Part shown: one piece after another, positions 1,499-60,502 of the stretch
Numbering within the stretch: position 1 is the first letter of the stretch
Layout: every line of letters begins with the position of its first letter
Origin: Escherichia phage Ec_YwIITB1
DNA: 64,000 bases
Reading direction: 5' to 3' (one strand)
Sequence record: PQ356294.1
Notes under the pieces: generated by a model
Databases searched by the model: none
Seen by the model: the letters and a program-made list of their open reading frames with translations, nothing else
Told to the model about the DNA's origin: nothing
Position numbers and translations under genes: made by a program

Positions 1499-1990
1499 AT
1501 GTTTGTAGATGATGTAACACGAGCGTTTGAATCTGGTGATTTTGCTCGACCTAACTTATTCCAAGTAGAAATTTCTTATCTTGGACAAAATTTTACGTTT
1601 CAATGTAAAGCCACTGCTTTACCAGCTGGTATTGTAGAAAAAATTCCAGTCGGTTTTATGAACCGTAAAATTAACGTAGCAGGCGATCGTACATTCGATG
1701 ACTGGACTGTTACAGTAATGAACGATGAGGCACATGATGCTCGCCAGAAGTTTGTTGATTGGCAAAGCATTGCTGCTGGGCAAGGGAACGAAATTACTGG
1801 TGGAAAACCAGCAGAGTATAAAAAGAGTGCTGTTGTTCGCCAATATGCTCGTGACGCTAAAACTGTAACAAAAGAAGTTGAAATTAAAGGCCTGTGGCCT
1901 ACTAACGTGGGTGAACTTCAATTAGATTGGGATTCAAACAATGAAATCCAAACCTTTGAAGTAACTCTCGCTCTCGATTATTGGGAATAA
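1499..1990 (+). CDS. 19: Tail tube protein gp19
   Basis: 163-aa ORF matching T4 gp19 (MFVDDVTRAFESGDFARPNLFQVEISYLG...); TATAAATA late promoter upstream. Confidence 0.95.
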   Translation: MFVDDVTRAFESGDFARPNLFQVEISYLGQNFTFQCKATALPAGIVEKIPVGFMNRKINVAGDRTFDDWTVTVMNDEAHDARQKFVDWQSIAAGQGNEITGGKPAEYKKSAVVRQYARDAKTVTKEVEIKGLWPTNVGELQLDWDSNNEIQTFEVTLALDYWE

Positions 1991-2022
1991 AATGAATGGG
2001 GAGAAATCCCCATCCTGCTTAA

Positions 2023-3647
<1,625 letters not shown>

Positions 3648-5808: not shown

Positions 5809-7370
5809 ATGACTATCAAAACTAAAGCTGAACTTTTGAACAAATGGAAGCCATTACTGGAAGGTGAAGGTTTACCGGAAATTGCTAATAGCAAACAAGC
5901 GATTATCGCTAAAATCTTTGAAAACCAGGAAAAAGATTTCCAGACAGCTCCAGAGTACAAAGACGAAAAAATCGCCCAGGCGTTCGGTTCTTTCTTAACA
6001 GAAGCTGAAATCGGTGGTGACCACGGTTACAACGCTACTAACATTGCTGCTGGTCAGACTTCTGGCGCAGTAACTCAGATTGGCCCAGCTGTTATGGGTA
6101 TGGTACGTCGTGCTATTCCTAACCTGATTGCTTTCGATATTTGCGGTGTTCAGCCGATGAATAGCCCGACTGGCCAGGTATTTGCACTGCGTGCAGTATA
6201 TGGTAAAGACCCAATCGCTGCTGATGCTAAAGAAGCATTCCACCCAATGTATGGTCCAGATGCAATGTTCTCTGGTCAGGGTGCTGCTAAGAAATTCGCG
6301 CTAGCACACAAACTACTGTAAGTTGGAACCATTTACACCTATTTCTTCCAGGAAACTGGTACTGTATATCTGCAAGCTACCTCTAGTTAAAGCAAATTGA
6401 TACAAGTGCTTCTGACGCAGCTAAATTAGATGCTGAAATTAAGAAACAAATGGAAGCTGGCGTATTGGTAGAAATCGCTGAAGGTATGGCTACTTCTATC
6501 GCTGAACTTCAGGAAGGTTTCAACGGTTCTACCGATAACCCATGGAATGAAATGGGATTCCGTATCGATAAACAAGTTATCGAAGCTAAATCTCGTCAGC
6601 TGAAAGCTGCTTACTCTATCGAATTAGCACAAGACCTCCGCGCTGTTCACGGTATGGATGCTGATGCTGAACTGTCTGGTATTCTGGCTACCGAAATCAT
6701 GCTGGAAATCAACCGTGAAGTTGTTGATTGGATTAACTACTCAGCTCAGGTTGGTAAATCTGGTATGACCCTGACTCCGGGTTCTAAAGCTGGTGTATTT
6801 GACTTCCAGGATCCGATTGATATTCGCGGTGCTCGCTGGGCAGGTGAATCCTTTAAAGCTCTGTTGTTCCAGATTGACAAAGAAGCAGTTGAAATTGCTC
6901 GTCAGACCGGTCGTGGTGAAGGTAACTTCATTATCGCTTCCCGTAACGTAGTTAACGTTCTGGCTTCAGTTGATACTGGCATTTCTTATGCTGCACAGGG
7001 TCTGGCTACCGGCTTTAACACTGATACTACCAAGTCAGTATTTGCTGGTGTTCTGGGTGGTAAATACCGTGTATACATCGACCAGTATGCTAAACAGGAT
7101 TATTTCACTGTAGGTTATAAAGGTCCGAACGAAATGGATGCTGGTATTTACTACGCTCCATATGTAGCTCTGACTCCGCTGCGTGGTTCCGATCCGAAGA
7201 ACTTCCAACCGGTAATGGGATTCAAAACTCGTTACGGTATCGGTATCAACCCATTTGCAGAATCCGCTGCTCAGGCTCCGGCTTCTCGCATCCAAAGCGG
7301 TATGCCTTCTATTCTTAATAGCCTTGGTAAAAACGCTTACTTCCGCCGTGTATATGTTAAAGGTATCTAA
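5809..7370 (+). CDS. 23: Major capsid protein gp23; reading frame broken by several small indels between about 6290 and 6450 in the sequence as given (probable sequencing error)
   Basis: ORFs 5809..6321 and 6450..7370 match T4 gp23 N- and C-terminal parts; intervening residues (TQTTV, VGTIYTYFFQETGTVYLQ, KQIDTSASDAAKLDAEIKK) are found in shifted frames. Confidence 0.9.
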
Positions 7371-10320: not shown

Positions 10321-10344
10321 AATGAAGAAAGGGGCCGAAGCCCC
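10321..10344 (-). terminator. Terminator hairpin after hoc (GGGGC-UUCG-GCCCC + U-rich on minus strand)
   Basis: Stem-loop 10331-10344 followed on the minus strand by a T-rich tract. Confidence 0.55.
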
Positions 10345-10356
10345 TTATGATTATGA

Positions 10357-11786
10357 TTATGGATAGGTATAGATGATACCAGTTTCTAAAGCAGTTTTAT
10401 GAATGATGTATCCATTGCGTGATTCTTGAACATCAACTTCTGGATAGTCTTTCATCATCTTCTGAAGAGTGTAACGATGCAGGTAGTATTTACTGTCTGG
10501 ATCTTCAGTTTTCCAATCTTTACCTTCTTCGGTCATTTTTTGGATTTCATCCATAACCCACCAGCCGCACCAGATATAAGCCGAAGTACGATGTGGAAGA
10601 GGATGAACATAAGGCAATTCACCTTCTGGTTCCGGAGCAACTTTATCAGTTACCTGAACTTGGCCTGTTGCTTTAACTGTTTTACTATCATAGTCGGTTG
10701 CTGTAACGACAGCAGTAACTTCAATAGTTTGACTTCCAATAGATGAGGTGTCAACGGTGTATACATTAGTTGACCCTTCTACAGGAGAAGAATCTTTCTT
10801 CCATGAATAAGTAATTTGAGCTGCTTCAGGTGCTCCGTGACATTAGCCGTAAATGTAGCCGAAGCATCTTGCTGAACGTTAATAGAAGGAGGAGTCAATG
10901 TAACCTGTGGATTCATTGTCTTCTTATTAACTGTCAATGATACTTCATTAGAAGTAACTTCCTTTGCATCATAATTTTCAGCCGTTACTTGGGCTACACA
11001 CTTAACTGTTTTAGCTCCAACTGTGGTAGGAGTATAGTTAAATGTAGTAGTAGTTTCTCCATCGACCAGAGAACCGTCAACATACCACTGATACGTAGCA
11101 GACGCTCCTGGTGGCTGTGAAGCCAAGGTAGCAGTAAATTGAACTGGGGTTCCAATAACTCCTGCTGGAGGATTAGCAGGAGTTACGGCTAACGTAGTTG
11201 TCTGTGTTTTCTTATTAACAGTCAGTGACACTTCATTAGAAGTAACTTCCTTTGCATCATAATCTGTCGCGGTTACTTGAGCTACACACTTAATTGTTTT
11301 AACTCCGCTTGCGTCAGGAGTGTAATTGAATGTAGTGCCAGTTGCTTCGCCCACAGGAGAACCGTCAACGTGCCATTGATACGTAGCGTTTGCACTTGGT
11401 GGCTGTGAAGCTAAGGCAGCGGTAAATTCAATTGGAGTTCCAATCACTCCAGCATCAGGGCTACCAGGAGTTACAGCTAAAATAGTTGTTTGTGTCTTAT
11501 TTTGAACCGTGATAGTTGTCGTAGTTTCTGCTGTTTCAGGTTCAGGTTCAGATTCAGATTCTGGAACTGTATTTGTTGCAACGACTTTAATAGTCTTTTG
11601 ACCTGCAGGTCCTTTTAATACATAGCCAAAAGTTGCCGCTTCTCCATCTTGCGGAACATTATCTACACTCCAAGCATAGGTAATAGTTCCATCTCCAGTT
11701 TCACCACTGGGTGTAGCAGTAAACTGCTTGGTTTCATCAATAACTCCTGTTGGGGTTTTAGGAGTTATATCAACTGTAAAAGTCAT
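10357..11786 (-). pseudogene. hoc: Head outer capsid protein Hoc; extra tandem Ig-like domain and an apparent 1-nt deletion (about 10836) separating the Ig domains from the capsid-binding C-terminal domain
   Basis: ORF 10779..11786 (N-terminal Ig domains) and ORF 10357..10617 (conserved Hoc C-terminus LPYVHPLPHR...IIYTYP) in different frames; pseudogene or sequencing error. Confidence 0.8.
10917..11498 (-). repeat. Tandem direct duplication (2 x about 291 bp) encoding two near-identical Hoc Ig-like domains
   Basis: Protein repeat KTQTT.LAVTP...ATYQW.VDGS...KCVAQVTA..YDAKEVTSNEVSLTVNKKT occurs twice in tandem; DNA copies at about 11208-11498 and 10917-11207. Confidence 0.75.
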
Positions 11787-11795
11787 AAGTTATCC

Positions 11796-12476
11796 TTATT
11801 TTAATGTTACGAAAGAAGAATTACGTGTTTCACGAATTAGAACTGATCCGTCGCGATTAATGTAATAAATTAAGCTAAATAAAGTTTGATGCGCAGACGC
11901 ATGCTCAAAACTGGTTGGGCGAGATTTCCAATCTGGAGTTTCAGCAATCCATTGGTAAATCCACCAAGGAACAGTGCAGAATCCTGGATTTTTTCCAATC
12001 AGCTGAAGATTCGGGCTAAAGTTTTCCGGAAGAGTAAATACAGACGGCTTTTCAGATTCAATAATCTCAGCTACAGCCTGCTCGAATTTTTCTTCAACAA
12101 AAGGAGTATCTTCAATCAAAACATCGGTATTTTCAGGAATTTTATCCATTTCTACTACTTCAATTTTAATGTCAGATTTAACCGGAGAATCAATCAGAAG
12201 TGCTGCCTCTGGATTGACTTCTTCATCGTCATATTTTAATCCGTCTGCGGCATCAGCAGCATCAATTAAGTCTTTAATAGATAACCCATCAGTCTCTGGC
12301 ATAGGTTCACTAGCGAGCTTCTGGAGGGCTTCTTCAATATCAACAACGATATTATCAAAAGATTTATTCTTTTTGACTTTTATACCAAACTGTTCAGCAT
12401 ATTCAGCTAATTTAGCTTTAGCTTCTTTATTATCATCAAGAGCCTTCAGCTCTGCAATATAATCTTTATCTATCAT
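11796..12476 (-). CDS. inh: Inhibitor of prohead protease (Inh)
   Basis: 226-aa ORF at conserved position between hoc and uvsW. Confidence 0.8.
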   Translation of the reverse strand: MIDKDYIAELKALDDNKEAKAKLAEYAEQFGIKVKKNKSFDNIVVDIEEALQKLASEPMPETDGLSIKDLIDAADAADGLKYDDEEVNPEAALLIDSPVKSDIKIEVVEMDKIPENTDVLIEDTPFVEEKFEQAVAEIIESEKPSVFTLPENFSPNLQLIGKNPGFCTVPWWIYQWIAETPDWKSRPTSFEHASAHQTLFSLIYYINRDGSVLIRETRNSSFVTLK

Positions 12477-12526: not shown

Positions 12527-14038
12527 ATGACTGACATTAAAGTACATTTTTATGATTTTAGTCACGTGAGAATTGATTGTGAAGAAAGTACATTTCATGA
12601 ACTCCGTGATTTCTTTAGCTTTGAAGCCGATGGGTATCGTTTTAATCCAAAGTACAGATATGGTAACTGGGATGGACGAATCCGTCTTTTAGATTATAAT
12701 CGTCTTCTTCCATTCGGCTTAGTCGGGCAAATTAAAAAGTTCTGTGATAACTTTGGCTATAAAGCCTGGATTGACCCACAGATTAACGAAAAAGAAGAAT
12801 TATCAAGAAAAGATTTTGATGAATGGCTTTCTAAATTAGAAATCTATTCAGGAAATAAAAGAATTGAACCGCATTGGTATCAAAAAGATGCAGTGTTCGA
12901 AGGATTAGTTAATCGTCGTAGAATTCTTAATCTTCCAACATCCGCAGGTAAATCTTTAATTCAAGCTTTGCTTGCTCGATATTATTTGGAAAATTATGAA
13001 GGCAAAATTCTTATCATTGTTCCAACAACTGCTCTGACAACTCAGATGGCTGATGACTTTGTTGACTATCGTTTATTCAGTCATGCAATGATAAAGAAAA
13101 TCGGCGGTGGAGCATCAAAAGATGATAAATATAAAAATGATGCACCAGTCGTTGTTGGTACATGGCAAACTGTAGTAAAACAACCGAAAGAATGGTTCTC
13201 ACAGTTTGGAATGATGATGAATGACGAATGCCATCTTGCTACAGGAAAAAGTATTTCATCTATCATATCAGGTTTAAATAACTGTATGTTTAAATTTGGT
13301 TTATCTGGTTCATTGCGCGATGGCAAAGCCAATATCATGCAGTATGTTGGAATGTTTGGTGAAATATTTAAGCCAGTAACGACCTCTAAATTAATGGAAG
13401 ATGGACAAGTAACTGAGTTAAAAATTAATAGTATTTTTCTTCGCTATCCCGATGAGTTCACTACTAAATTAAAGGGAAAAACTTACCAAGAAGAAATAAA
13501 AATTATTACTGGACTCAGTAAAAGAAATAAATGGATCGCTAAATTAGCTATTAAGCTTGCACAAAAAGATGAAAACGCTTTTGTCATGTTTAAACACGTA
13601 TCACATGGTAAAGCTATTTTCGATTTAATTAAAAATGAATACGATAAAGTTTATTACGTATCAGGGGAAGTTGATACCGAAACCCGCAATGTAATGAAAA
13701 CCTTAGCTGAAAACGGTAAAGGAATAATTATAGTAGCTAGTTATGGTGTATTTTCTACCGGTATTTCAGTTAAAAATCTGCATCACGTTGTTTTAGCACA
13801 CGGTGTTAAATCTAAAATTATTGTATTACAAACAATCGGTCGTGTATTACGTAAGCATGGTTCCAAAACAATCGCAACAGTCTGGGACCTCATAGATGAT
13901 TGTGGTGTTAAACCAAAATCTGCTAATACGAAAAAGAAATACGTTCATTTGAACTATCTTTTAAAACACGGCATTGATCGTATTCAGCGCTACGCAGATG
14001 AAAAATTTAATTACGTAATGAAAACAGTTAATTTATAA
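12527..14038 (+). CDS. uvsW: UvsW SF2 DNA/RNA helicase
   Basis: 503-aa ORF matching T4 UvsW; Walker A-like PTSAGKS, DECH box. Confidence 0.95.
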   Translation: MTDIKVHFYDFSHVRIDCEESTFHELRDFFSFEADGYRFNPKYRYGNWDGRIRLLDYNRLLPFGLVGQIKKFCDNFGYKAWIDPQINEKEELSRKDFDEWLSKLEIYSGNKRIEPHWYQKDAVFEGLVNRRRILNLPTSAGKSLIQALLARYYLENYEGKILIIVPTTALTTQMADDFVDYRLFSHAMIKKIGGGASKDDKYKNDAPVVVGTWQTVVKQPKEWFSQFGMMMNDECHLATGKSISSIISGLNNCMFKFGLSGSLRDGKANIMQYVGMFGEIFKPVTTSKLMEDGQVTELKINSIFLRYPDEFTTKLKGKTYQEEIKIITGLSKRNKWIAKLAIKLAQKDENAFVMFKHVSHGKAIFDLIKNEYDKVYYVSGEVDTETRNVMKTLAENGKGIIIVASYGVFSTGISVKNLHHVVLAHGVKSKIIVLQTIGRVLRKHGSKTIATVWDLIDDCGVKPKSANTKKKYVHLNYLLKHGIDRIQRYADEKFNYVMKTVNL

Positions 14039-14063
14039 GGGCTTCGGCCCTTTGGAGAAAAAG

Positions 14064-14294
14064 ATGTTACTAGAATTTAAACAATTTCTTTATGAAGCTT
14101 CTATTGATGAATTTATGGGTAAAATTGCCTCTTGTCAAACAATAGAAGGTTTAGAAGAACTTGAAGCTTATTACAAGAAAAGAGTTAAAGAAACTGAATT
14201 AAAAGATACTGATGACATCTCAGTCAGAGATGCTTTGGCAGGAAAAAGAGCTGAATTAGAAGATTCAGACGATGAAGTAGAAGAAAGCTTTTAA
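14064..14294 (+). CDS. uvsW.1: UvsW.1 small acidic protein
   Basis: ORF 14052..14294; ATG at 14064 preceded by GGAG; 76 aa. Confidence 0.7.
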   Translation: MLLEFKQFLYEASIDEFMGKIASCQTIEGLEELEAYYKKRVKETELKDTDDISVRDALAGKRAELEDSDDEVEESF

Positions 14295-23016: not shown

Positions 23017-25073
23017 TACATCTTGAACTTTTTAGACATTCCGTTGATGTTAACCAAAGAAGCCAAGATTTGAGAAACTTCGTTTTCCTCTTCTTTTGAT
23101 TCTTCTACAAGGAATTGATTAAACCCAGCCATTGGACGAACTTCACCAGTTTCCATTAGATGATCGCCATCATATACCGATTCTTCTAATTGTTCAGAAG
23201 GAGGAACGATTGTGCCTTCAATTAGATACTTGTTATAAGCAGTTTCTTTCATCATGTACGTGCTCACTTTATTAATCTTCAGCAAAATTCCACGTGGTAG
23301 AATAACTTCAGCTTCTGATGGAAATCCTGATAAATGACCTGGAACGATAACTTTGATTCGCTCAGCCCCTTTAATTACCATACCTACGCTAGCTTCAGCA
23401 TCTTCATTAGCATATGCAGAATGACTACCCATATGCATTAAATCTTCAGCATCAACAGAACCTTCTCCTTCACCAGAAAATACTGCGCCGGAATCATCTA
23501 GAGCCATATAGTTTTTACCATGCTCACCGAAGATATTTGGTTTAAGCGATGTTGATACGAAGTTCTTGAAATAGAACATTTTATTTTCAATATTATGGCG
23601 TAAAGTTTTAAAAGTAACTTCTTGTCCACGATAAAGCGTAATTCCCGGAGGAAGAACTGAACCTTTGGCAAAGGCAGAATCCAGCGTCTCGATGTGTTTA
23701 ATAGCTCGTTCCATATATTCTTCACGGGTAGAATCTGGTTTACCCAAGAGGAACGAGTTCATTTCAACATATGAATCTGCACAATAATCTTCAATTACAA
23801 CAGACTCAGCCTGAGTTAATCCTTTTGGAGTTACTTCAGTGCTTGCGTATTCATATGCCTGAGCAGCAGATTCATTAATCAATTTATAAATGCCATTCAT
23901 GACAAATTGAATAATAGCTACCTTTTCGTCTGGCGTAGCTTTAGAACCTTTAACTAAATCATTGATAATTTTCTTAATAACATCAAAGCTATTAGAAATA
24001 TTAATGTCAGCGAGATCGCTCAAAATTTTATCGGTTTTATAATCAAAAAATTCTTTATTCTTTAAATATTCTTGAGAACCTTGATATGTTATATCGCTCT
24101 GCAGTCTGATAGACGGATCGCGTAAACGTGCATGGGCCAATGCAATATGATTTCGGAGGCTTTCTAGTTCATAATCGTTAGATTTAAAACGAGAAGCACT
24201 TCTCATACCACCGATAGCTCCTTTGCTGAAGTTGGAACCAATCTGAATAACGCCAGAGTTCATTGGTCCTTCTGCTTTATATACCGGAACTTTAGATTCA
24301 AACTCTTGATATTTCTTGGCGGCGAAGCTATCGCCCTGAAGTGAAGCATCGACAGTAGAATATTGAGCTTGCGCTGCCAATCGACGACTAATTTTAGTTT
24401 TCTGAATAACAGCTTGATCCGTGCGCTTATCATTTTCTAAAGCAATAGAAGCAGCAACAGCAACAGCTTTAGGAACAGCATTACCTGTTTTAACATCTAC
24501 ATAAACATCACCAACCTTTGATTCAACTTTTGTGAATAACTCAGTTGAAATAGGAGGTACACCTGGAATGTCTTCTAAATTGGCATTTTTACGGTAAACC
24601 ATAATATATGCATACTTTTTATCATAATCCCAGATTTCCTTTAAAAGAACATATCGACCTGCTCCTTTAGTACGTACTAAACGGTCAGCAATAACTTGCA
24701 TCTGACGAGCTGCGCCATTTGTTTTACTTTTTAGTACGCGGAATAGGCATGCATCAATTTTATACTGTTTCATTGTTTGAAGAGCAGTATCAAAAACCGC
24801 ATTAATGACACCAATTGGATTTCCACCCAAGTTTTTAAGTTTAACTAATGATAGTTTCTCATTAACACCTATCATTACGATATGCATCATTTTATCGCCT
24901 GGCTTAACGTTTTTATTTGTATCACCGCCAGAGGTGTATGTACAAAATCTAAATCCAGGAAGCACACTTTCTTCGCCGGCTTGAATAGCAAAAATTTGAG
25001 GTATTTTATGCTTAGGATTTAAGTTAACAACCGGCGCCGAAGCGCCGTCAAATAATTCTGTAATAAGTTCCAT
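23016..25073 (-). CDS. Alt-like mono-ADP-ribosyltransferase paralog (intact R-S-EXE motifs)
   Basis: 685-aa ORF; N-terminus MELITELFD...; motifs YRGQ, FVSTSLKPNIFG, SEAEVILPRG; paralogous to adjacent alt. Confidence 0.8.
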   Translation of the reverse strand: MELITELFDGASAPVVNLNPKHKIPQIFAIQAGEESVLPGFRFCTYTSGGDTNKNVKPGDKMMHIVMIGVNEKLSLVKLKNLGGNPIGVINAVFDTALQTMKQYKIDACLFRVLKSKTNGAARQMQVIADRLVRTKGAGRYVLLKEIWDYDKKYAYIMVYRKNANLEDIPGVPPISTELFTKVESKVGDVYVDVKTGNAVPKAVAVAASIALENDKRTDQAVIQKTKISRRLAAQAQYSTVDASLQGDSFAAKKYQEFESKVPVYKAEGPMNSGVIQIGSNFSKGAIGGMRSASRFKSNDYELESLRNHIALAHARLRDPSIRLQSDITYQGSQEYLKNKEFFDYKTDKILSDLADINISNSFDVIKKIINDLVKGSKATPDEKVAIIQFVMNGIYKLINESAAQAYEYASTEVTPKGLTQAESVVIEDYCADSYVEMNSFLLGKPDSTREEYMERAIKHIETLDSAFAKGSVLPPGITLYRGQEVTFKTLRHNIENKMFYFKNFVSTSLKPNIFGEHGKNYMALDDSGAVFSGEGEGSVDAEDLMHMGSHSAYANEDAEASVGMVIKGAERIKVIVPGHLSGFPSEAEVILPRGILLKINKVSTYMMKETAYNKYLIEGTIVPPSEQLEESVYDGDHLMETGEVRPMAGFNQFLVEESKEEENEVSQILASLVNINGMSKKFKM

Positions 25074-25076
25074 GAT

Positions 25077-27131
25077 TTATCCTTGAACGAACTTGTAAGG
25101 CATGTTTGTAATATCTATGCAAGACGCAATAATTCCAAGAGATGATTCTACTTTTTGTTTAACATTTGATGAAACAAATGATGCAAAGTCAACTCTGTCT
25201 TCTATTTCAATATCATCTGTCATTGCAACTACTTCACCAGTTTCCATTAGACGATCACCGTCATAAATTACTGATTCGGTGAGTTCTTCGGTAGTCATAA
25301 CTTCAGCTTGAATAAGCTTGTTGTTAGTTTTAGCTGTTCCATCATTGTAAGATGCGTCGGTTATTTTATTGACTTTGACCATCAATCCACGCGGCAAAAT
25401 GACTTCCATTTCATTTGAAGGCGCTAAACTTCCACCTGGTAAAACAACGTTGACTTTATCAGCCCCAGTAATAACCCATCCAATTCCAACTAAATTATCG
25501 CTAGAATTAACAAGTCCTTCATCGTTTTTATCGATAGAAATGTTTAGACGCTTTTCGTCTGGTAAAACACCCACAGCTGAATCAGTCATCCAAGTACCAA
25601 AAATGTTTGGATATAATGATGTTGATACAAAATTTCTAAAATAAAAAACTCGATTTTTTACCAATGCTTCATATATTGAAGGAGCAGTCATGCTTTGAGC
25701 ACGATAAACTGTAATGCCTTCTGGTATACGGTCACCATTTTCAAAGGCTGAATCTAAATTATTTATCGCAGATTCAATTTCTTTTTCACTCATTACCTCA
25801 TATCGTTCTGGATTATATAATCCCAAAAGAGCATTATTCATGTCTACATATCCTGAACCTACGTATTCACGAATTCCGCGTTTTTGTGCCGGTGTGTATT
25901 TAGATGAATCTTTATTTTCGACTATAGAATGCAATGACCATCCAACGGTAAGAGCATATCCACGTAATTCTCTTCGAATAATCTTTGTTTTTATTGCATT
26001 CCAAGAATTTTGCACTAACTCATTCGCAGCATCTTGATTTAAATGCGAATGCTTGTTAATATTTCTTTCTAACCAAGCACCTTTATATTTTTCTAAAGTA
26101 TCATCAACTATAGAAGCAATAGTTTCTAAAGTTTTTATTGAAGTAATAGATTCTTTTCGTAATCTTTCTAAAGCTTTATTTTTTATTTCTGCATTAACAT
26201 CAGATTCTTTATCTTCAGGAATTATAGAAGCTTCTCTGAATGCCATTCCAGCTGTAACACTATTAAGAGCATTCTCTAATGCAAATCCTGAAGTAGAAAT
26301 AACAGTTAATTCGTTAGCATCAGAAATTAAAGGCGCGTCAGCGGGTTTATTTAATTCTGCTGCTGAAGCCTCAAATTTTTGAAACATTGGTGTTTCAAAT
26401 CTAGAAGATTCTAATGATTGACTTTGTGCAATTGCTCTACGGGAAATTTTAACTTTAACGATTACAGCTTGGTCAGAACGTTTATCGTTTTCTTGCGCAA
26501 TAGATGCAGCAATGGCCTCATTTTTAGTTACTTGAGCTCCGGTATCTTTATTGATATAAACATCGCCGACTTTCGATTCAACTTTAGTAAAGAGCTCTGT
26601 ACTAATTTCAGGAACTCCTGGAATGTCTTCTAATGATACATTTTTGCGATGTATAAGAATATATGCATACTTTTTATCGTAATCCCAGAGTTCCTTAAGA
26701 AGGACGTATCTGCCACCTGAACGACTACGGATAAGTCTATCAGCAATAAGTTGAATTTGACGAGCTTGACCAGCAGTTTTAGACTTAAGAATACGGAGCA
26801 TGCAGGCATCAATTTTATACTGACGCATCGTTTGCATTGCAACAGTAAAAACTGAATTGATATAATTAATTGGGCTTGGACCGAGACCTTTTAATTTAGC
26901 GATTGAACCTTTAGCAGTTAATGTAAAAGGAACAATATGCATCATTTTATCGCCCATCTTTAAATCGCGATTAGTATCACCTCCAGATGTGTAGGTACAT
27001 AAACGAAAACCTGGTTGTTCAATTGCGTCATCAACATGAACTGAAAAAATTTGCGGTATTTTCTTCTTTGGATTTAAGTTTGTAATCGGAAGAGTAGTAT
27101 CTTCGTCAAATAATTCTGTAATGAGTTCCAT
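25077..27131 (-). CDS. alt: Alt ADP-ribosyltransferase (packaged, modifies host RNA polymerase)
   Basis: ORF 25077..27134; start at MELITELFDEDTT...; motifs YRAQ, FVSTSLYPNIFG, NEMEVILPRG; matches T4 Alt. Confidence 0.9.
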   Translation of the reverse strand: MELITELFDEDTTLPITNLNPKKKIPQIFSVHVDDAIEQPGFRLCTYTSGGDTNRDLKMGDKMMHIVPFTLTAKGSIAKLKGLGPSPINYINSVFTVAMQTMRQYKIDACMLRILKSKTAGQARQIQLIADRLIRSRSGGRYVLLKELWDYDKKYAYILIHRKNVSLEDIPGVPEISTELFTKVESKVGDVYINKDTGAQVTKNEAIAASIAQENDKRSDQAVIVKVKISRRAIAQSQSLESSRFETPMFQKFEASAAELNKPADAPLISDANELTVISTSGFALENALNSVTAGMAFREASIIPEDKESDVNAEIKNKALERLRKESITSIKTLETIASIVDDTLEKYKGAWLERNINKHSHLNQDAANELVQNSWNAIKTKIIRRELRGYALTVGWSLHSIVENKDSSKYTPAQKRGIREYVGSGYVDMNNALLGLYNPERYEVMSEKEIESAINNLDSAFENGDRIPEGITVYRAQSMTAPSIYEALVKNRVFYFRNFVSTSLYPNIFGTWMTDSAVGVLPDEKRLNISIDKNDEGLVNSSDNLVGIGWVITGADKVNVVLPGGSLAPSNEMEVILPRGLMVKVNKITDASYNDGTAKTNNKLIQAEVMTTEELTESVIYDGDRLMETGEVVAMTDDIEIEDRVDFASFVSSNVKQKVESSLGIIASCIDITNMPYKFVQG

Positions 27132-45232: not shown

Positions 45233-46257
<1,025 letters not shown>

Positions 46258-56383: not shown

Positions 56384-60502
<4,119 letters not shown>

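Follow-up and report, generated by a model that had tools for sequence, protein, structure and literature searches.

We find that the stretch of DNA analysed here (64,000 nucleotides from Escherichia phage Ec_YwIITB1, record PQ356294.1; hereafter, the window) most likely carries an ordinary Tequatrovirus hoc gene in its common five-domain form. On this reading, to which we assign a probability of roughly 85%, the two repeated modules in the middle of the gene (types A and C) would be old paralogues, their copy number would change by unequal recombination, and a one-base deletion that breaks the frame would most probably be an error. The window as a whole belongs to a Tequatrovirus, that is, a T4-like phage, with the best record, Escherichia phage vB_Eco_ZCEC15, being 97.2% identical over the first 25 kb (window 1-25000).

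What identifies the gene as hoc? A minus-strand open reading frame at 10779..11786 (335 aa in the ORF list) begins with MTFTVDITPKTPTG, the N-terminus of T4 Hoc. The gene lies downstream of gene 24, in the interval between inh on one side and 24.3/rnlB on the other, as in T4 (open reading frames, tblastn with T4 proteins, and the annotations of T4 and Killian), and the surrounding order is that of T4: inh (11796-12476), 24.3, 24.2 and rnlB. At 1430 nt, hoc lacks one base to be divisible by three. With one base added, the repaired product measures 476 aa, as compared to 376 aa for T4 Hoc, and matches PHROG 1149 ('Hoc-like head decoration'; E 2.6e-144), the T4 Hoc chain 5vf3_Z (E 8e-211) and the Pfam families PKD, Ig_3 and I-set. 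The features of the locus are as follows:

10357..11786, minus strand: hoc gene, from ATG at 11786 to TAA at 10357-10359 (ORF list, translations, T4 synteny, PHROG 1149, PDB 5vf3_Z)
11493..11786, minus strand: Ig-like domain 1 (aa 1-98), with AlphaFold strands at 4-95 (pLDDT ~90), aligning with T4 Hoc domain 1
11535..11561, minus strand: hexanucleotide repeat TTCAGA (plus-strand reading), 4.5 copies, encoding the acidic loop ESESEPEPE in domain 1 (Tandem Repeats Finder)
11205..11492, minus strand: repeat unit 1, type A (aa 99-194; repeat finders, translation, nucleotide comparison with sb4 and Killian)
10917..11204, minus strand: repeat unit 2, type C (aa 195-290; repeat finders, translation, Pfam PKD match at residues 200-267)
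10648..10916, minus strand: last Ig-like domain, the homologue of domain 3 in T4 Hoc (Pfam Ig_3 / I-set, repaired residues 293-378)
10836..10837, minus strand: one-nucleotide deletion between C10837 and G10836 (DNA alignment with Killian, UGKSEcP1, LF73P3 and T4)
10779..10781, minus strand: premature TAG in the shifted frame, ending the 335-aa ORF (ORF list, sequence)
10360..10647, minus strand: C-terminal capsid-binding domain (repaired aa 381-476), intact and out of frame with the start codon (translation ...YVHPLPHRTSAYIWCGWW...IIYTYP)
10329..10346, minus strand: terminator-like G+C hairpin with a T-rich tail, directly 3' of the hoc stop (consensus scan)

A terminator is annotated at the place corresponding to the last of these features in the phages G29, fPS-65 and NBG2.

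The tandem repeat inside hoc is real and far beyond chance. A preliminary description of the sequence had placed it at 10917-11498, and both repeat programs return those coordinates: a repeat finder places one 288-nt copy at 10917-11204 and the other, 80% identical and in direct orientation, at 11205-11492, and Tandem Repeats Finder reports 10917-11498 with a period of 288, 2.0 copies, 80% matches and a score of 766. The size and likeness given there need correction. Instead of about 97 aa (about 291 bp), each unit measures 96 aa (288 nt), in frame on the minus strand and following the pattern QTT.LAVTP...SLTVNKKT; and rather than being near-identical, the two units differ at 58 of 288 nucleotides (79.9% identity) and at 22 of 96 amino acids (77% identity). 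By codon position, the nucleotide differences number 15, 14 and 29 at positions 1, 2 and 3, respectively.

The units coincide with structural modules. An AlphaFold model of residues 1-290, comprising domain 1 and both units, shows three all-beta domains at a mean pLDDT of 93.4, with strands at 102-191 falling within unit 1 (aa 99-194) and strands at 198-287 within unit 2 (aa 195-290). As in a module array, the unit length is a multiple of three and the unit edges, including the junction at 11204/11205, are edges of structural domains. Among solved structures the model is matched best by 3SHS, which comprises the three Ig-like domains of RB49 Hoc, with multi-Ig receptors next in line; Pfam, AlphaFold and 3SHS all identify the N-terminal part of the protein as the string of Ig-like domains expected of a Hoc. 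At the other end, the translation of 10357-10836 is 91% identical to T4 Hoc residues 218-376 (tblastn), and the capsid-binding domain matches PHROG 21694 (E 1.4e-41) and is homologous to T4 residues 281-376, including the His-Arg pair of the first loop; the role of this domain and its conserved His299/Arg300 have been described (PMC10385173). The window Hoc, once repaired, is four Ig-like domains plus a capsid-binding domain, whereas T4 Hoc has three plus one. The earlier proposal that the repeats are Ig-like modules, giving one such domain more than in T4, is thus borne out by protein length (476 vs 376 aa) and by the AlphaFold model.

Where did the two units come from? We compared, at the nucleotide level, units from ten phages, and the resulting matrix resolves three unit types that are 75-82% identical to one another. 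Type A comprises the first units of multi-unit Hocs; type B the middle units and also the sole unit of T4; and type C the last units, as well as the sole unit of fPS-65. Unit 1 of the window is 97.6% identical to unit 1 of Shigella phage sb4 and 93.1% to unit 1 of Escherichia phage Killian; unit 2 reaches 97.6% with sb4 unit 2, and 96.9% with both Killian unit 2 and UGKSEcP1 unit 3 (all nucleotide identities). The T4 unit is 90% identical to the middle unit (unit 2) of UGKSEcP1, as compared to 77% and 82% for the two units of the window. On a wider scale, a comparison of 167 units taken from 120 protein clusters likewise puts the window units nearest to units of matching position in other Hocs. 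Judged by these identities, the window has an A unit followed by a C unit, neither of which corresponds to T4 domain 2. Painting the units by 'diagnostic' residues that separate the first-unit from the second-unit consensus left 3 positions above threshold, so few because the units are themselves mosaic.

These comparisons bear directly on two other origins for the pair. One is a recent, lineage-specific tandem duplication of a T4-type domain 2, creating a novel extra Ig-like domain; the other is an assembly artefact, a single unit written twice. A recent duplication would account for units that lie head to tail and in frame, with end motifs common to both, in a gene of which T4 has one unit only. 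Copies of recent origin should be each other's closest relatives, however, and here they are 79.9% identical to each other as against 97.6% to their counterparts in sb4; same-position counterparts in other phages reach 97-98% nucleotide identity, the architecture is common to hundreds of genomes, and the T4 unit is of type B, so that neither window unit is its counterpart. We therefore regard such a duplication as very improbable. The artefact, which the preliminary description had raised as a possible assembly duplication, draws some plausibility from tandem repeats being a known source of assembly errors and from the window having other sequence problems. Yet a unit written twice would be identical or nearly so, and 58 of the 288 positions differ; each copy, moreover, has its own same-position counterpart at 98% nucleotide identity in sb4, and many independently sequenced genomes have both unit types in matching order. 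This leaves the artefact with next to no credibility, the least of all explanations weighed here. Since same-position counterparts agree at ~98% while the two units of the window agree at 80%, the duplication is an old one, neither a lineage event nor an artefact: the window units are old paralogues rather than fresh copies.

Nor is the extra domain unusual, for close relatives share the domain count, an outcome that the preliminary description had itself named as counting against its reading. Among the 40 phage records that best match the hoc region, 36 have the five-domain hoc span, the rest being two with the T4 span, one with a six-domain span and one (G29) with a split hoc. When the 653 matching phage records were sampled evenly, the sample contained 53 full-length ones, which divide into 19 with the five-domain span, 33 with the T4 span and one with a seven-domain span. 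Protein clusters give a similar series: lengths of 376-379 aa account for 79 of the best 120, 472 aa for 29 and 567-570 aa for 9, the other three being of odd length; the cluster nearest to the window Hoc is 91% identical. Hocs of 472 aa are annotated in Killian, sb4, HP3 and NBG2; that of UGKSEcP1 has 568 aa (six domains), and that of slur03 has 664 aa (seven domains, four units). The five-domain architecture is already known and ordinary, with about a third of deposited Tequatrovirus genomes encoding the 472-aa form. In the literature, Hoc homologues are described as keeping the capsid-binding domain constant while the string attached to it ranges from 1 to 10 Ig-like domains (PMC10385173), and a three-domain Hoc variant has been characterised functionally (PMC11853027); we found general statements on a variable number of Ig-like domains and no explicit description of a five-domain Tequatrovirus Hoc or of recombination among its units. 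The A/B/C typing and the hybrid units described below, which we did not find in print, are an unsurprising refinement rather than a discovery.

How might copy number change? The relative closest to the first 25 kb of the window, ZCEC15, has a four-domain Hoc with a single unit (hoc, locus 365-1501), and sliding-window nucleotide comparison together with mismatch positions reveals this unit to be a mosaic. Its nucleotides 1-116 equal Killian unit 1 (type A), nucleotides 106-166 equal UGKSEcP1 unit 2 (type B) and nucleotides 158-288 equal Killian unit 2 (type C), each without a mismatch, while the same tracts have 21 or more mismatches to the other unit types. In LF73P3 the unit is mostly C-type, apart from a short tract in agreement with Killian unit 1 and UGKSEcP1 unit 2. 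The three-part hybrid of ZCEC15 reads as the signature of unequal homologous recombination that collapsed a multi-unit array. T4 replication depends on recombination, and array collapse by this route in a recombination-dependent replicator is plausible. Across Tequatroviruses, the module known from T4 as domain 2 forms an array of 1 to 4 copies, with T4 retaining type B only; unequal homologous recombination between units would shift the copy number and leave hybrids as a by-product.

A second source of length variation may reside in domain 1. The segment containing its acidic loop spans 16 aa in the window and 12-14 aa in relatives (census of 120 Hoc clusters), and the AlphaFold confidence falls to a pLDDT of 72 at residues 71-80. 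These lengths, in a loop encoded by a hexanucleotide repeat, suggest stepwise slippage. The exact DNA of this loop had no match in the viral, metagenome and genome collections searched, and neither the 476-aa length of the protein nor the 16-aa domain-1 loop occurs in any collection searched.

Together, the array and the loop invite a broader, more tentative reading, wherein the Hoc module array is a recombination-driven cassette: A, B and C modules might be gained, lost and spliced, and the loop hexanucleotide expanded, thereby varying, even among very close relatives, the length and the exposed surfaces of the most immunogenic protein of the capsid under selection by mucus adhesion or antibodies. 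Of this scheme, the genomes compared here show the series of copy numbers and the existence of hybrid units; for the scheme in full, we are somewhat more inclined to doubt than to accept it. We found no paper describing such an account of variation for Tequatrovirus Hoc.

The gene as written does not encode a complete Hoc. At the deletion site the window reads GTCAC-GGAGCA where relatives have ACTGGA or ACGGGT; the surrounding stretch measures 131 nt as compared to 132 nt in the best 12 of 587 matching records, none of which is identical to it. The break falls in the last Ig-like domain, where a tblastn alignment of T4 Hoc splits into two frames. Beyond it, 159 codons stay open in another frame at 91% identity to T4, including the entire capsid-binding domain. 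A single continuous ORF from the Ig-like string to the capsid-binding domain, as is typical of Hoc, is thus missing from the deposited sequence and restored by adding one base. Taken literally, the hoc product would lack the capsid-binding domain and could not decorate the capsid. Because the ORF stops after 335 aa without that domain, the window would encode a longer fibre only if the deletion were an error. In searches of viral contigs, the context of the frameshift had no match with or without the missing base, and exact-protein look-ups returned no match for the 335-aa ORF and for Inh.

Two ways in which the phage might make do with such a gene were considered and rejected. Programmed frameshifting would require a slippery heptamer; there is none near 10780-10840, and the relatives aligned all have the extra base. 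Separate expression of the C-terminal domain would require a start codon, and the downstream frame offers no ATG, GTG or TTG before a TTG at 10617, which is inside the domain.

Two further genes of the window have broken frames. Gene 23 (5809-7370, plus strand), which encodes the major capsid protein, is split into ORFs at 5809..6321 (170 aa) and 6450..7370; its frame switches three times within ~90 nt (near 6300, 6325 and 6385), and as compared to relatives it has lost 4 nt net. The broken stretch resembles a patchwork of T4-like (ASTQTTV) and UGKSEcP1-like (VGTIYT) variants. In frd, which encodes dihydrofolate reductase (45435-46012, minus strand), the frame is broken by the loss of 4 nt near 45688, where the sequence is locally divergent, leaving a stretch of 261 nt as compared to 265 nt in T4, the RB phages and UGKSEcP1. 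When T4 proteins are compared to the entire window, about 80 other homologues each occupy a single frame. Because gene 23 is essential and a viable phage cannot have such a break, the window sequence must contain errors, and the break in gene 23 points to an assembly or consensus error, with a mixed population as its possible source. The breaks in hoc, gene 23 and frd all fall at positions that vary among relatives, as would be expected if the consensus had been derived from reads that were mixed or poorly resolved. Gene calls in this window should hence not be trusted at face value.

Could the hoc frameshift nonetheless be real? Ec_YwIITB1 would then be a natural hoc mutant that makes a soluble protein of 335 aa—domain 1, the two repeat units and a truncated last Ig-like domain—and whose virions are bare of Hoc, like those of the T4 phage HAP1. 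The deletion is present in the sequence and unique to the window among the records compared; with neither a slippery site near the shift nor a start codon upstream of 10617, nothing would rescue the C-terminal domain. Hoc is non-essential, with HAP1 being a known spontaneous nonsense mutant that is null for hoc (PMC10580926), and there are other deposited records of Tequatroviruses in which the hoc annotation consists of two coding sequences. Against this stand the frame-broken gene 23 in the same window, impossible for a viable phage, and the broken frd, along with the position of all three breaks at sites variable among relatives, a pattern expected from consensus errors. The gene shows no decay beyond the shift, either: all 159 codons are open and highly similar to T4. 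We therefore consider a natural mutant unlikely, albeit less so than the two alternative origins of the repeat discussed above. With an essential gene frame-broken in the same window, the deletion at 10836/10837 is probably a sequence or assembly error.

As an observation in its own right, hoc is also present as two coding sequences in G29 (locus 1565-3038), vB_EcoM-172859UKE1, vB_EcoM_CE1 and one T4 record. The split hoc of deposited genomes may reflect either frequent loss of the gene in culture or frequent mis-sequencing of a repeat-rich gene.

What would an intact five-domain Hoc mean for the virion? Hoc is the capsid fibre by which T4-like phages stick to mucus and cell surfaces, and a widely used platform for vaccine display. 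By analogy to T4, the product of the intact gene is predicted to consist of four Ig-like domains in a row, after which comes the C-terminal domain that would bind the centre of each gp23 hexamer; some 155 copies of the 476-aa protein would then sit at the hexamer centres, each projecting four Ig-like domains. Since the three Ig-like domains of T4 Hoc form a fibre of ~180 angstroms (PMC10385173), one more such domain would be expected to add roughly 4 nm to it. Ig-like domains of Hoc bind mucin and fucose (PMC9271167, PMC11853027), and to judge from work on T4, the extra module would add one surface that could bind glycans or cell surfaces. Reach as well as specificity could thereby change with the extra module. 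Alongside the reach and binding of Hoc, its antigenicity could likewise depend on how many Ig-like modules it has.

Compared to other Hoc proteins, that of the window is most similar to the 472-aa Hocs of Escherichia phage Killian, Shigella phage sb4, Escherichia phage HP3 and vB_EcoM_NBG2, with which it shares the position of the gene, the order of domains and the boundaries of the units; the hoc region of Killian is 95.2% identical to the window at the nucleotide level. It departs from them in having 476 aa, with a domain-1 loop that is 4 aa longer, and in the 1-nt deletion that breaks its frame. With T4 Hoc (376 aa; PDB 5vf3 chain Z, 8t1x) it has in common the family, the capsid-binding C-terminal domain, domain 1 and the last Ig-like domain, whereas T4 has a single middle module, of type B. 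The Hocs of UGKSEcP1 (568 aa) and slur03 (664 aa) contain the same 96-aa module in tandem, with NKKT/QTT junctions, and carry three or four units in place of the two of the window. In the wider Hoc-like family, with its 1-10 Ig-like domains (PMC10385173), a variable number of modules is likewise set on a constant capsid anchor, yet the Ig-like modules of distant members such as that of Serratia phage Muldoon (10 domains) are unrelated to those described here. Variation in the domain number of Hoc is thus already documented, and the window adds one more sequence variant.

Outside phages, the Alpha C / Rib family of streptococci offers a parallel: these strongly immunogenic surface proteins are built of Ig-like repeat modules of equal length, whose copy number varies via homologous recombination. 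The likeness to Hoc is one of analogy, not homology, and the repeats of the bacterial proteins are as a rule almost identical, in contrast to the ~20% divergence of the Hoc units.

Some other regions of the window also differ from T4. In the uvsW region (12527-14291, plus strand), an ORF of 503 aa is followed by a separate short ORF, where the T4 reference record has one fused UvsW of 587 aa and itself flags sequence discrepancies at this place. The split matches the known uvsW / uvsW.1 arrangement, and we have not counted it as a frameshift. The distal tail fibre gene 37 (56413-60500, plus strand) encodes a protein only ~33% identical to T4 gp37, and a comparison of T4 proteins with the window gave no match for gp38, which suggests that the arrangement of adhesins differs from that of T4. 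Finally, two alt-like ADP-ribosyltransferase genes lie in tandem at 23025-27131 (minus strand). The product of the one at 25080-27131 is 94% identical to T4 Alt; the other, at 23025-25073, is a full-length paralogue with 41% identity, at a place where T4 contains nothing but the short remnants alt.-1 and alt.-2.
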